64,000 nucleotides of DNA from a virus: IMG/VR virus record IMGVR_UViG_3300031669_005140. One strand, written 5' to 3'. Within the stretch, counting starts at the first letter, position 1. Each line of letters begins with the position of its first letter. Shown here piece by piece: positions 5,557-60,778 of the stretch. A model generated the notes under the pieces. That model was not told where the DNA came from. It searched no databases and worked only from the letters and a program-made list of their open reading frames with translations. The position numbers and the translations under genes were made by a program.

Positions 5557-5603
5557 TAGTATTGTGTAGTTCAATTTGGTGAACTGTATTTATAAACTAG
5601 TTA
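5557..5603 (-). repeat. attI-like terminal site, copy 1 (near-identical to 8155-8200)
   Basis: Plus strand TAGTATTGTGTAGTTC...GTGAACTGT...TATAAACTAG|TTA. Confidence 0.75.
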
Positions 5604-6053
5604 GCTGCAAGCACTAATTATGTGCTTCGATTAAACTTTCTCCTTCATCATCACCATAAAAAAATTCGCAGAAAGAAAGTGAATTACTACCGTCATCATA
5701 AGCCTGTTCATTTATCCAGTCTTTAAATGTTTTTCTTTGCACGTCTCCTATATCACTTTCTCCCCACCCCTCTTTACTTCCATCGGGAGCTATAAAAAAG
5801 GATTGGTAACTATTCACATCACTTTCAATTATAGTTGAAGTTCTGCTTTTAAATATTTGAGTTGCTTTTTCGTGAGCCTTTTTTATTAACTCATCATTCC
5901 AGCTTGTTACAGCTATTGCGTGGTGTCTTATATATCCCATTTTTTTATTATTTAAGTGTTTCAAATTAAGTTACTGCTAAATTTACCGTGCCAGCAGCTA
6001 ACACGTTGTATAATTCATTGCGAAAAGCAACGAAATCATACAACCATTCGTTA
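5600..6053 (-). mobile_element. gene cassette A with upstream attC-like hairpin
   Basis: Ends GTTAGCTGCAAGCAC (5600) and GTGCCAGCAGCTAAC (to 6002) are 13/15 complementary; hairpin at 5999-6053. Confidence 0.75.
5614..5964 (-). CDS. hypothetical cassette-borne protein
   Basis: 116-aa ORF (probable start MGYIRHHAI) with APDGSKEGW motif. Confidence 0.7.
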   Translation of the reverse strand: MKHLNNKKMGYIRHHAIAVTSWNDELIKKAHEKATQIFKSRTSTIIESDVNSYQSFFIAPDGSKEGWGESDIGDVQRKTFKDWINEQAYDDGSNSLSFCEFFYGDDEGESLIEAHN

Positions 6054-6060
6054 ACGACAA

Positions 6061-6294
6061 TTAAAGAGAATGCTCCTTGCGATATTGTTTCAACCTTCCG
6101 ATAGTCAAGTTTTGTTGTATTATCGTTTGACTTAATTTTTGTGCTTGCCTAATTTGGTTAGGTTCTCCTGCAAATAATGATGCTTGCATATTTTCATTAG
6201 AAAATACCATTTTTTCAAGGCTTTGTAATCCTTTATCCCAACCAACCTTATTACACATATCTATTAACATTTTAAATGATGCGTCTTTTGCCAT
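6061..6294 (-). CDS. hypothetical cassette-borne protein (cassette B)
   Basis: 77-aa ORF between GTTA/TAAC cores at 6050 and 6316. Confidence 0.65.
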   Translation of the reverse strand: MAKDASFKMLIDMCNKVGWDKGLQSLEKMVFSNENMQASLFAGEPNQIRQAQKLSQTIIQQNLTIGRLKQYRKEHSL

Positions 6295-6345
6295 TTGATT
6301 AAAAACGTTTTATAACACGGTATGTAAGCCATCCCTTGTCAAGGT

Positions 6346-6735
6346 TTATTCTTTTCTGTTTGCTATGGCCGCCTGTTCCTGATAGATGCTAGACTTAGGA
6401 TAAAGACCGATTGCAGTAGGTTCCAACGGCAGTTCGTCGGGAAACTCATACTGCGAGGAGATGTCTACGATGCTTGCAGCGATCTCACAGGCATCCCTAC
6501 TTAACCTCCAGCCCCTATCCGTTACCATCCGATACTTTTTCCTTTTAGTATCGTGATGCGTTTTGAACGTGGTTGGAATATAAACTATTCCCTCTGGCTT
6601 CCTTATTGTAATGTAATCACCTTTCTTGCTTTCCTCAAAGTCCGTATCTCTTAGCTCTGGCTCGTGCCCATTAACAATGAGTGCTGCCGCTATGGACGAG
6701 CTGGCCTGAATAAAGTAATCCCTTAGTTGCCCCAT
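6346..6735 (-). CDS. hypothetical phage protein
   Basis: 129-aa ORF overlapping the end of the HNH gene. Confidence 0.55.
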   Translation of the reverse strand: MGQLRDYFIQASSSIAAALIVNGHEPELRDTDFEESKKGDYITIRKPEGIVYIPTTFKTHHDTKRKKYRMVTDRGWRLSRDACEIAASIVDISSQYEFPDELPLEPTAIGLYPKSSIYQEQAAIANRKE

Positions 6736-7178
6736 GAAAGATTATGATTAGAAATGAACCTATTGTAGTAATGCTCGTCTAGTGCCTTCATCCTGGATAG
6801 CACGGCTCCGAACGTCCTTGGAAACAGCTTTAGCAGGAAATTTACTGGCACAACGGTAAAGTTCTGGTCGAATACATCGTGATGCTCTCTACATGCCAAT
6901 ATTCCATTCCGTATGTCACCCCGTAGCAGCAAGGAATGGCTTTTAGGGATGATATGTGCCCAGTCTACCGGAAGATACCGCCCACATATTTCACAGCGAC
7001 TCCCAATACGCTGTACCATGGCTGCCTTGTTTGCACTGATACGGTTATCGGAGGCTCTTGTCTTCGTAGTTTTCTGCTTAATCTTTGGTAGGCTTCCTCT
7101 AAGATACTGGTGCTTTCTGCAATACCCGTGTGAGAAAACAGGGTATTTGCATCCTCCTGAGTTGCACTCTTTTGGCAT
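6723..7178 (-). CDS. HNH endonuclease-like protein (NinG-like)
   Basis: CEICG...AHII...N.ILACREHH zinc/HNH pattern; N-terminal C-C-C-H cluster. Confidence 0.75.
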   Translation of the reverse strand: MPKECNSGGCKYPVFSHGYCRKHQYLRGSLPKIKQKTTKTRASDNRISANKAAMVQRIGSRCEICGRYLPVDWAHIIPKSHSLLLRGDIRNGILACREHHDVFDQNFTVVPVNFLLKLFPRTFGAVLSRMKALDEHYYNRFISNHNLSWGN

Positions 7179-7525
7179 ACTTGTATACTTTTAGTGATGT
7201 TCAACTTATCGCAAGCGTAATCGATAATAGGGGTAATAAGAATATCGCTTCCCCGTTCTAGCCATCCGTCTACAATTGTTACAGATCGTAGCATGTTTGA
7301 GTGAGAAAACTTGGATAGCAACTTAACATCATCGTAGGCATTAGCCTTCATTCCATAGTATCGCATAAGAATAAACCGAGCAGCGTGACGACCGTAGCTA
7401 TGGCCCCTATCTCTGCAATCGCTATACATTAACTCTCCGATGTCGATGCCTTGGTATTCTGCAATCGGCCTACATACCCGCTCCAGCAACTCTTTATCAT
7501 ATTCTCTCATATACCTATTCCTCAT
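6965..7525 (-). CDS. DnaA C-terminal-like helix-turn-helix protein
   Basis: RDRGHSYGRHAARFILMRYYG...HSNMLRSV resembles DnaA_C-type phage HTH proteins. Confidence 0.4.
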   Translation of the reverse strand: MRNRYMREYDKELLERVCRPIAEYQGIDIGELMYSDCRDRGHSYGRHAARFILMRYYGMKANAYDDVKLLSKFSHSNMLRSVTIVDGWLERGSDILITPIIDYACDKLNITKSIQVCQKSATQEDANTLFSHTGIAESTSILEEAYQRLSRKLRRQEPPITVSVQTRQPWYSVLGVAVKYVGGIFR

Positions 7526-58926: not shown

Positions 58927-59367
58927 ATGGCACGATATAACGATAATGCACCAATAGGAAATACTTGCCCTACAATTGATAATATCATTGGTAAGATGGA
59001 ATATGCCAAGGGAGAGGCTGAATATATTCTTAAACATCAAGAAGAAGACAGCAAACATGAGGCGAATAGTATTTTAGGCGAACTTATTGACGCCATTTCT
59101 GATATGGAAAGTATAAGAAGTGACAACCAAGAACTCAGGCAATGGGGAAACGATGAATATAACCGAGCGGAGGATGCTAATAGTTATAGAGGCGAAGCCG
59201 TTAAAAGATGCGAGGATTTAGAAACAGAAGTAGATAGCTTAAAAGCACAAATTGAAGAACTACAAGAAAAGCCTAGCGAAGTTACAGTTTGCGAATGCGA
59301 CTTTGTTAGAATATCTGATAACGTGATTGAATGTACCAAATGTGGCGATGTTATCGAGTTTAGATAG
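58927..59367 (+). CDS. coiled-coil protein with C-terminal zinc ribbon
   Basis: TCP.ID motif, coiled coil, CEC...CTKC. Confidence 0.65.
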   Translation: MARYNDNAPIGNTCPTIDNIIGKMEYAKGEAEYILKHQEEDSKHEANSILGELIDAISDMESIRSDNQELRQWGNDEYNRAEDANSYRGEAVKRCEDLETEVDSLKAQIEELQEKPSEVTVCECDFVRISDNVIECTKCGDVIEFR

Positions 59368-59418
59368 CAGGATGATCTATAACGAAAAGTGTAAACACCG
59401 TTTTAAAACTAAATAAAT

Positions 59419-59634
59419 ATGGAAAAAGAAAGAGGAATAACAATTACAAATGTTGATAAAAGCACCGATAAAAATGGTGTTTCACATAGTGTTACCAAAC
59501 GTAAGTATTGGTATCGTGATGATATTGAAGTATGCGTGCTATGTGGTAAAGAAACTCACAATAAGGAACGAGTTTACAATGAAAGTGAGAAAGGAACATT
59601 TTGGAAAGAAGGTGCTTGTTGGGAACATTTTTGA
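59419..59634 (+). CDS. small zinc-ribbon protein
   Basis: YWY...CVLCG...C.EH. Confidence 0.65.
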   Translation: MEKERGITITNVDKSTDKNGVSHSVTKRKYWYRDDIEVCVLCGKETHNKERVYNESEKGTFWKEGACWEHF

Positions 59635-60188
59635 TATATGTTTGCTAACTCGTTTATAAACACTATTCAAAGATATCTACCCAATGAAAAACAAACATAC
59701 GTCACAGGAATTATATACATTGTTGGATAATGTATATTTAAAGAACCAAGATAGAATTGAAAACCCACTTTGGGAAATAGTAGACGGTGAATTGCAAGAA
59801 CCAAAGTATGTATACGACTTTGAACGATATATACCCGAAGAGTTTAAGTATCGATGGAATAGTTTAACCAACGGAACCAAAACCGCTTTGTTTCTGGTAG
59901 CAAATAAAGCTGCTGAAAACGAAGTATGGGATTAAATTGTTGCTAACTATTCATACATTCATCAATGATTTAACCACATAAAAGCCATGACCGACAAGCA
60001 GAAGATAGAAACGCTTAGGCGATGTTTTGAGGAGACAATATGGATGGCTATACGGTATGCTCATGGGAGAAATACCTATGCACCGTCCATGGTTAGGGAT
60101 GCCGTAAATGCCTTTAAGACGGTTTTTCCAGACTGGAAGTTGCGCGAAGACAAGGTAGTTCACATATACACTTCAAAAAACCAGATCA

Positions 60189-60479
60189 ATGATAATAATG
60201 TATAGTGAGCCAATAGGCGATTACGTTCACCTAGTCCACGAGGCAGCCAATGGCAGATACGAGCTAACTGGCTACGACCTACACGTTATAGAGGCAGCAT
60301 TGCAGCAACTAGGAGATATTACTAACAATTATAGCGTTGGTGGTGATTATTCCCCGTTGACATTTGAGGAGTGCCTTAGAGAAGAATTTTTGCTTAACAC
60401 TCAAAATTACCCAGCGGAATATCATAACTTATTTAACCAAAAATTTGCACGGGCTAGAAAGCGTTTTGAAGAGCAATGA
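60189..60479 (+). CDS. hypothetical protein reading across a collapsed cassette junction
   Basis: Contains ACTAAC-9 nt-GTTGGT; its 3' half is duplicated at 5338-5474. Confidence 0.5.
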   Translation: MIIMYSEPIGDYVHLVHEAANGRYELTGYDLHVIEAALQQLGDITNNYSVGGDYSPLTFEECLREEFLLNTQNYPAEYHNLFNQKFARARKRFEEQ

Positions 60480-60483
60480 TCAA

Positions 60484-60744
60484 TGACAGTTGGGTATATA
60501 CGAAGTACCCTAACTACAAACTTAAAAATTAGTACAAACCTTAATAGGGTATTTCGTATATACCTTGTTAGCAAATCGTAAAAATTATGCCAAGAGAACC
60601 ATTACCGTTAAAAAGAGAACATAAAGGCGATGTAACTATTAATATTGCTGATATATTCAGAAACGAAGAAATGCAAAAAGAAGCAATAAAAGGATGTAAG
60701 AAACTTAAACCACGTAAACGTAAATAATTTTTATGTTTGCTAAC
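60484..60744 (+). mobile_element. gene cassette K with attC-like hairpin at 60484-60570
   Basis: Arms GGTATATACGAAGTACCCTA/TAGGGTATTTCGTATATACC; ends GTTAGCAAA/TTTGCTAAC (9/9). Confidence 0.75.
60587..60727 (+). CDS. 46-aa cassette-borne peptide (absent from the ORF track)
   Basis: MPREPLPLKREHKGDVTINIADIFRNEEMQKEAIKGCKKLKPRKRK* fills the cassette. Confidence 0.6.
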   Translation: MPREPLPLKREHKGDVTINIADIFRNEEMQKEAIKGCKKLKPRKRK

Positions 60745-60778
60745 TCATTGATAAGTGCAGTTCAATTATTTAACTGTT

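Follow-up and report, generated by a model that had tools for sequence, protein, structure and literature searches.

A 64,000-nucleotide (nt) stretch of viral DNA (IMG/VR record IMGVR_UViG_3300031669_005140, hereafter the window) contains repeated copies of a 13-nt motif, TAACTMGTTTATA, that close rows of small genes headed by folded DNA sites. We consider it probable that an integron-like cassette system, carried by phages of Bacteroidota-type hosts, has an attI-like docking site of which this motif is an orphan copy. An attI-like reading had been proposed in an initial annotation of the window, and it is largely supported by the position of the copies, by the pairing of cassette ends, and by the behavior of a similar site beside a Xer-like recombinase gene in other phages.

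Five exact copies of TAACTMGTTTATA are present in the window, against 0.03 expected from shuffled sequences, and they lie where the initial annotation had placed them (Table 1). All five are found in gaps between co-directional genes, on the strand of the local genes (minus in the left arm, plus in the right arm). The conserved unit spans about 26 nt, TAAC-N2-GTTKATA-N4-CAGTYCA, with an AT-rich box 5 nt after the TAAC core and a distance of 8-100 nt to the next start codon. Each exact copy follows a hairpin-headed gene, in agreement with the claim that the site stands after the last gene of an array; the hairpin/gene pairs are 6053/5964-5614, 8580/8518-8210, 14061/13993-13778, 20412/20264-19683, and 59380/59419-~59640. 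Only about 6 of the 47 left-arm genes are headed by a hairpin, and the probability that all four exact left-arm copies would follow such a gene by chance is ~3e-4. Gene orientation also bears out the proposed polarity, with the cassette open reading frames (ORFs) pointing toward the site.

The copies are not themselves hairpins. For five of the six motif regions, predicted folding is no stronger than that of shuffled sequences (z-scores of -1.3 to +0.5), and the tandem region at 19661 folds modestly better (z = -2.5). A matrix derived from the aligned copies recovered three of the variants listed in the initial annotation (13708-13721, 19601-19614, and 60741-60753) and, beyond the known copies and variants, nothing at the same threshold in 64 kb; the two other listed variants, at 59944 and 61916, are weak. 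A second TAAC-like box, TAAC or GAAC, lies approximately 27-33 nt downstream of the copies at 5603, 60741, and 13721 and of three copies outside the window, with an alignment that is only moderate. The assertion that similarity between copies stops at the core held in part. The duplicated 138-nt blocks 13651-13788 and 19544-19681 begin at TAAC, and in the blocks 5557-5610 and 8154-8207 (54 nt shared) similarity ends within 2-7 nt of the core, whereas the copies at 59646 and 60741 and the two second tandem copies have TATGTTTGM in common immediately before it, a sequence that proved to be the terminal inverted repeat of the preceding cassette.

The window belongs to a new Bacteroidota-type phage whose genome is a circle of 79,929 bp. 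A pair of ENA contigs, each 80,070 nt long, match both window ends at 100% identity, bridge them via 15,929 more bases, and carry a 141-nt end overlap, from which circularity and genome length follow. All 79,929 bp were read, the portion outside the window being L180:2451-18379. Three further site copies were found there (TAACTMRTTTATATATACACTTTTTAACSG; L180 8151, 8588, and 9029), alternating with ordinary genes and hairpins, so that the whole genome holds at least eight copies, five exact ones in the window and three outside it.

Hairpin-headed cassettes and their ends

The sites heading the small genes are long-range hairpins of 59-126 nt with the form TAAC-spacer-arm...arm'-spacer-GTTA. Their cores are often GCTAAC and GTTAGC, the spacer is unpaired, and the variable loop often contains the start codon. 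A compact form reads TAAC-N5-6-GTATAAA...CGTTTTAATG...TTTATAC-N3-GTTA, with CGTTTTAATG as its loop. The hairpins form a widespread and sharply defined family. In IMG/VR there are 76 exact matches to the 16-mer TAACGGACGAGTGTAT, which is the 5' arm of the 9210 hairpin; nearly all of them lie within the extended 5' arm TAACGGACGAGTGTATG, and a simple pattern search found the matching 3' arm, ATACAC-ATT-GTTA, in 36 of 77. Phages with G+C contents of 31-54% retain the same unpaired spacer, GGACGA, and the same loop, CGTTTTAATG. A hairpin 86% identical to the one that heads the methyltransferase cassette (20289-20412) is present in the IMG/VR loci L039, L085, and L090.

The two ends of a cassette are complementary to each other across the gene. 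When the 18 nt from the GTTA of the hairpin are set against the 18 nt ending at the TAAC of the motif, 12-15 positions pair in five of the six cassettes, compared with 8.5 ± 2.0 of 18 for mismatched cassette-end pairs; the 10-14 nt immediately before each TAAC are complementary to the beginning of their own cassette. At the copy at 5603, the preceding GTGCTTGCAGC pairs with GCTGCTGGCAC after the GTTA of the hairpin; the corresponding ends are GTTAGCACCA and TGGTGCTAAC at the copy at 8200, and GTTATAAGCCGTTTT and AAAATGGCTTATAAC, matching at 15 of 18 positions, at the copy at 19673. This pairing across the gene makes TAAC the core that closes the cassette, with the remainder of the motif beyond it.

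Where the window and unrelated phages share a piece, it is one hairpin or one cassette. Window positions 9210-8930 recur at 86% identity as L107:397-677; the match starts exactly at TAAC, stops at the C of the following TTAC, and is flanked on either side by unrelated sequence. L095 and L098 carry one common cassette up to ...CATAACGT, after which they diverge. In the relative X3, similarity to the methyltransferase-hairpin region ends at 20417. Relatives also have the loop of this hairpin (20310-20389) swapped for the loop of the hairpin at 8580 (8472-8560), with another start codon and N-terminus; the hybrid joint 20302/8472 shows such a swap of hairpin loops, so that a loop moves independently of its arms.

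A recombinase-proximal site in other phages

A match to PF00589 was detected in two of ten hairpin-bearing viral records, and none in five viral records bearing the docking motif (motif A). The first case is a complete 68-kb genome in which TAAC-TACCATATAAC... comes after a hairpin cassette and is itself followed, 41 nt on, by a co-oriented gene for a 263-amino-acid recombinase with PF13495 and PF00589 domains. A gene for the 263-amino-acid enzyme also lies at L110:1468-2259 on the minus strand. Its best solved relatives are the XerA-like structure 4a8e, then IntI4, XerA, and XerD. Homologs were found in four further loci and in 64 IMG/VR loci in all, which points to a common system, since this count represents the recombinase family alone. 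Of 43 recombinase starts examined, 41 proved to have a site upstream, and 36 of these sites are unique. Its consensus, TAACTATTATATATAAAC, is of the TAAC-TA-YY-ATATA type and lies 45-67 nt (median 56) before the start codon; forms of the recombinase's own site are TAACTATTATATATA and TAACTACCATATA. Hairpin arrays are found only upstream of the recombinase gene and co-oriented with it, the enzyme being at their 3' end: in 30 loci, the loop motif CGTTTTAATG occurs 27 times upstream, never downstream, and never in antisense.

Five contig pairs compare different cassettes at one platform. From TAAC onward they are 92.5-100% identical over 400 nt and upstream of it only 26-36% identical, and the run of identity breaks 0-2 nt before TAAC. 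These recombinase-proximal copies provide the filled alleles that the initial annotation had called for. The recombinase-proximal site is a junction at which otherwise identical platforms bear unrelated cassettes. Complete genomes that carry the recombinase also contain orphan copies of the site on the same strand (four in G319, two in G010), so that a genome with several platforms is normal. In another phage of the same soil sample, TAACAATTATATATAAA is followed by a recombinase gene truncated after ~85 codons (L164:2440-2760). Recombinase homologs are also present in 56 of 301 Bacteroidia genomes (240-268 bits), and of the best 15, 14 have an N-terminal extension of ~75-110 amino acids, with only L189 resembling the phage type.

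A matrix was built only from the 36 unique recombinase-proximal sites and used to score 128,000 window positions and 30 shuffles. The window copies at 5603 (17.3 bits) and 8200 (17.0 bits) ranked first and second of the 128,000 positions, and both exceed the maximum over all shuffles (16.0 bits). The other exact copies, three TCG copies, took ranks 4-7 with 11.2 bits each. All five exact copies fit TAACTMNNWTATA, that is, the TAAC core and then T-A/C-N-N-W-TATA, and like the reference sites they come directly behind a co-oriented hairpin array, where its last cassette ends in the terminal inverted repeat. No recombinase gene lies 45-67 nt downstream of them, and neither a recombinase nor a stub is present in the 79,929-bp genome, so that they are orphan copies. 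Judged by sequence and position, the window motif and the TAAC-TA-YY-ATATA site upstream of the Xer-like recombinase appear to be members of one site family.

We propose a scheme in which small genes are headed by folded TAAC...GTTA sites, with self-complementary cassette ends and a closing TAAC core, and in which all cassette rows point to a non-hairpin site that starts with this TAAC and continues with TA-NN-WTATA. In the enzyme-bearing phages, this site lies ~56 nt upstream of the co-oriented gene for the 263-amino-acid Xer-like recombinase, and different cassettes abut it exactly at TAAC. The recombinase would act at the docking site, with strand exchange at the core or within two bases of it. 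Copies in the present phage, if used now or formerly, would need a recombinase in trans; otherwise, they may be footprints of arrays copied in from elsewhere.

Table 1. Docking-site copies, hairpins, cassettes, and promoter-like motifs in the window
Feature	Position	Strand	Remarks
Exact copies of TAACTMGTTTATA	5591-5603, 8188-8200, 13768-13780, 19661-19673	-	left arm
Exact copy of TAACTMGTTTATA	59646-59658	+	right arm
Site copy A (TAACTAGTTTATAAATACAGTTCA)	5578..5603	-	closes cassette of hairpin 6053-5995 and gene 5964-5614; exact match
Site copy A	8175..8200	-	ends three-cassette row (hairpins 9210, ~8936, 8580); exact match
Site copy A1 of tandem pair	13755..13780	-	its TAA is the stop codon of the 71-amino-acid cassette gene 13993-13778
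Variant site copy A2 (TAACCTAGTTGATA...)	13696..13721	-	immediately 5' of promoter-like motif B
Site copy A1	19648..19673	-	closes cassette of hairpin 20412-20289 and methyltransferase gene 20264-19683
Variant site copy A2	19589..19614	-	followed by motif B and DUF3127 gene
Site copy A, right arm	59646..59671	+	closes cassette of hairpin 59380-59494 and ~74-amino-acid gene; 26 nt before ATG 59684
Variant site copy (TAACTCATTGATA...)	60741..60766	+	after hairpin 60493-60570 and small ORF; motif B next
Candidate further site TAACTTATATATATGATA	20614..20631	-	end of 342-amino-acid gene; third-best match of recombinase-site matrix, 12.9 bits
attC-like hairpin, 124 nt, TAAC...GTTA	20289..20412	-	heads methyltransferase cassette; -21.4 kcal/mol, z -2.6
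attC-like hairpin	13950..14061	-	start codon 13993 in loop
attC-like hairpin	8456..8580	-	heads gene 8518-8210; 89-91% identical in L089, L094
One complete cassette	8930..9210	-	TAAC at 9210 to C of TTAC at 8930
Compact hairpin	5995..6053	-	heads gene 5964-5614; z -2.9
attC-like hairpin	59380..59494	+	start codon in loop
attC-like hairpin	61507..61630	+	heads row ending at weak variant 61916; z -2.4
Motif B	2391-2407, 5299-5315, 13665-13681, 19558-19574	-	
Motif B	58838-58854, 60779-60795	+	

Transcription signals and evidence from related genomes

Replication genes, numerous small ORFs, and a single TnpB insertion occupy the minus strand of the window at 1-23,450; from 23,500 to 64,000 the genes are plus-stranded and comprise those for the terminase, the structural proteins, and a protein of 2,488 amino acids, followed after 57 kb by small genes. 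The terminase has only 25% identity to those of Cellulophaga and Flavobacterium podoviruses. No relative was found by a terminase search of IMG/VR, no match to named phages by megablast with two window parts, and no close relative in IMG/VR with longer motif patterns. The protein index lists a 152,794-nt contig with the same genes, which is either a larger relative or a partial concatemer or chimera record. The 2,488-amino-acid virion-type protein (window 47279-54745) matches nothing in Pfam or PHROG and lacks a DFDxD motif, and by its sequence it does not look like a crAss-type virion RNA polymerase. TAnnTTTG boxes are located 21-31 nt upstream of late-gene start codons, which points to a Bacteroidota host.

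A promoter-like element, motif B (TTTTGACGAACGATTTG), has eight matches compared with 0.33 expected, and it forms the upstream half of a Bacteroidota-type promoter: TTTTGACGAACG, ATTTG at -33, 20 nt, and T(A/T)AnnTTG at -7. The promoter comprises a -35-like TTGACG, the -33 TTTG, an A-rich block, and the -7-like T(A/T)AnnTTG. Motif B is kept before orthologous genes in the distant relatives L003 and L004 (42-62% protein identity), and it resembles the "tripartite" middle promoters described for the crAss-like phage phi14:2, in which promoters are extended and multi-block (10.1101/2020.03.07.982082). An inverted copy (CCGTTCGTCAAAA on the coding strand) at 20462-20478(+) occupies the same intergenic position in three related phages (L003:1223, L004 ~4075). 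Near another of the motif B copies, a 146-nt copy (94% identity) of the 3' half of the right-arm gene 60189-60479 (60347-60492) is present in antisense in the left arm at 5329-5474, between a site copy and the promoter and beside a perfect 15-bp hairpin (5489-5529); the relatives X3 and X5 are without it (joint 5336/5523).

It is unlikely that the docking motif is a transcription signal only. As such a signal it would be a promoter or an initial transcribed leader, used by the RNA polymerase of the host, possibly together with a phage factor, to resume expression behind every row of cassettes. Its likeness to the recombinase site would then reflect a shared promoter, including that of the recombinase gene itself, which needs a promoter within ~56 nt after TAAC because the upstream DNA varies. 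Much of the context is what such a signal would display: the motif is in sense orientation only and always intergenic, 8-100 nt before the next ATG, it includes a TATAAA/TATAAT-like box, it stands in tandem with the clear promoter motif B, itself conserved in relatives, and it precedes consecutive ordinary genes in L012 and L180; phi14:2 also provides a precedent for extended multi-block promoters. The motif does not, however, fit the Bacteroidota -33/-7 consensus used before late genes, having no TAnnTTTG box of the primary-sigma promoter (-33 TTTG, -7 TAnnTTTG), a box present in late genes and in motif B, and a generic sigma-70 and terminator scan found no enrichment. Nor would a transcription signal explain the TAAC core common with the hairpins, the strict position after the inverted repeat, or the breaks 0-2 nt from TAAC. 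A more specific version, a phage promoter with a Bacteroidota -7 box, or else an extracytoplasmic function (ECF)-like or T4-late-like element, was dropped as the main explanation because TATGTTTG, which precedes four of the eight copies, is the cassette inverted repeat, and because the link to the recombinase emerged. The AT-rich box after the core may also serve as promoter for the downstream gene.

Several results weigh against an active platform in this phage. A recombinase of the family is absent from the closed genome: tblastn at E<=1 gave only a 23-bit chance match, the best E-value of a profile hidden Markov model was 0.17, compared with 1e-26 and 2e-8 for controls, and there was no match to Phage_integrase among the ORFs scanned or on record. 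No insertion was observed at any window copy. In the only allele comparison, the joint 13680/14370 of the relatives X7 and X11, which comes from contigs of wastewater and sludge relatives (~95% identity), 29 nt stand in place of a 689-nt segment that carries both tandem sites, one hairpin, and two small genes, and the break is exactly at the start of motif B (four of the wastewater runs are labelled "RNA-Seq" and are probably DNA). The initial annotation had suggested a search for "empty" alleles in which the site directly abuts upstream sequence; here, the site is missing together with the cassettes, so that the platform itself is accessory and not fixed backbone. Motif B likewise precedes orthologous genes in L003 and L004 without the docking motif. 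The exact motif sequence of the window was found in none of 66 hairpin-bearing loci, which suggests that it is lineage-specific, and 21-mer scans of genome and metagenome collections returned only an L010-type phage and apparently chance matches in Bacillus, Clostridia, and Polaribacter, the last of these not near the Polaribacter recombinase. The scores of the three TCG copies are within the range of shuffle maxima, sites also occur between ordinary genes outside the window (L180) and in L012, and neither the site nor hairpins were found near the best 15 Bacteroidia homologs of the recombinase. Of the claim that the copies are multiple insertion platforms, the site family, the junction in relatives, and the orphan copies in recombinase-bearing genomes are in favor; the recombinase and an observed insertion are missing here.

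The lack of a recombinase would also suit copies that are inert relics, either collapsed hairpins (TAAC, the palindrome GTTTATAAAC, and GTT(A/C)A) or platform stubs carried in with arrays. The motif does resemble a compact hairpin minus its stem-loop, the site is dispensable in relatives, and a stub exists elsewhere, in L164. We regard this explanation as very improbable: the 13-mer is identical in five copies with differing flanks and near-identical in three more, which suggests selection or ongoing conversion, and genomes that do bear the recombinase keep orphan copies in the same orientation.

Other differences from the wastewater relatives lie at plain microhomologies without TAAC. The indel 3175/3423 is at TAATGnCATGG, 6368/9235 at shared gene 3' ends, and 10955/13329 at GTATAGTT-like leaders. 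Together with the genome's lack of a recombinase, these indels would accord with a process that has no dedicated enzyme, in which motif and hairpins are regulatory modules shuffled by homologous or microhomology recombination, in the manner of the promoter-early stem-loop (PeSL) cassettes of T4-type phages. As an account of the docking motif, we find this improbable. A specific recombinase family is tied to array ends in 64 loci with strict polarity, the conservation of the spacer GGACGA and the loop over such a range of G+C argues for protein recognition, and breakpoints 0-2 nt from a 4-nt core leave too short a stretch for homologous exchange.

Gene content also varies at places other than the docking sites. 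The 89-amino-acid gene 3184-3453 is precisely absent in relatives (window 3176-3428) through a deletion between two TAATGnCATGG stop-start overlaps, which suggests that genes are lost by microhomology at gene starts without a hairpin. A TnpB-only IS605-type element (10976-12302) is absent from X7 and X11 (empty-site joint 10975/12303), and the neighboring 246-amino-acid gene 12539-13328 and a 2.4-kb block, 10956-13328, vary in presence from one relative to another. The end of an IS200/IS605-type element has a subterminal hairpin next to a tetranucleotide cleavage site and is accompanied by TnpA or TnpB. No TnpA was found, and the TnpB element is a separate insertion whose right end, ...GGGTAGTTCACTAA, has only AGTTCACTAA in common with the tail of the copy at 8188.

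Relation to known cassette systems

The attI site of classical integrons (attI1 ...CTAAAACAAAG|TTAGGC) and the docking site have much in common. The attI1 string given in the initial annotation was correct, as AAAACAAAGTTA occurs in attI1 papers. Both are non-hairpin, double-stranded sites that share the GTTA/TAAC core of the folded sites, both have a short imperfect inverted repeat around the core, both adjoin a tyrosine recombinase gene in complete systems, and at both, unrelated cassettes abut exactly at the core. As in classical integrons, cassettes are bounded by folded sites with inverted RYYYAAC and GTTRRRY cores. The polarity is reversed: cassette genes of a classical integron read away from attI, driven by Pc, whereas those of the phage system point toward the site, and the recombinase gene is downstream and co-oriented, not divergent. 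Cassette sites in the phage system head the genes and often include the start codon, there are several orphan copies per genome, and the carrier is a phage. Classical integron exchange is at G|TT of the core; natural junctions in the relatives break within 0-2 nt of TAAC. Classical IntI has an additional domain for which the 263-amino-acid Xer-like phage enzyme is, from its length, apparently too short, and no IntI-type integrase with that domain, divergent beside attI, is present in this genome.

Clusters of attC sites lacking integron integrase (CALINs) were reportedly described by Cury et al. in 2016. The present phage resembles them in carrying rows of folded sites in a genome without a cognate recombinase, presumably serviced in trans or decaying; CALINs, however, are defined by attC alone, whereas each short row here keeps its own docking-type site. 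The phage enzyme is nearest to XerA, XerC, and XerD among solved structures and, like Xer/dif and the integrative mobile elements exploiting Xer (IMEXs), would be site-specific at a short core. The docking site bears no resemblance to the 28-bp dif (two 11-bp arms and a 6-bp spacer), and the phage substrates include long folded sites and serve cassette arrays, not dimer resolution or integration. The shuffling of PeSL cassettes in T4-type phages is thought to use homologous recombination. These, too, are repeated regulatory and structural elements, placed among small accessory genes of phages and delimiting the modules that are shuffled, whereas the phage system described here has a dedicated recombinase gene and a fixed polarity, linked to arrays in many phages.

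No description of this phage cassette system was found in the searchable literature. The integron is viewed as a bacterial device centered on a single special integrase, and our finding points to a parallel integron-like system in phages, with a small Xer-like recombinase, folded sites that head genes, and a docking site downstream, in which even a recombinase-less phage carries at least eight docking sites. Such a system would explain in concrete, mechanistic terms the mosaic "hyperplastic" regions found in phage genomes, and a defined DNA site of 13-26 nt with a defined enzyme makes it amenable to a direct recombination assay. More speculatively, the orphan sites might be live docking platforms that double as promoters and are serviced by the recombinase of a co-infecting phage, drawing on a communal cassette pool; we advance this only tentatively and think it rather doubtful. 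If true, Bacteroidota phages would pool hairpin-headed cassettes, including methyltransferases and small unknown genes, and trade accessory genes without an enzyme of their own.

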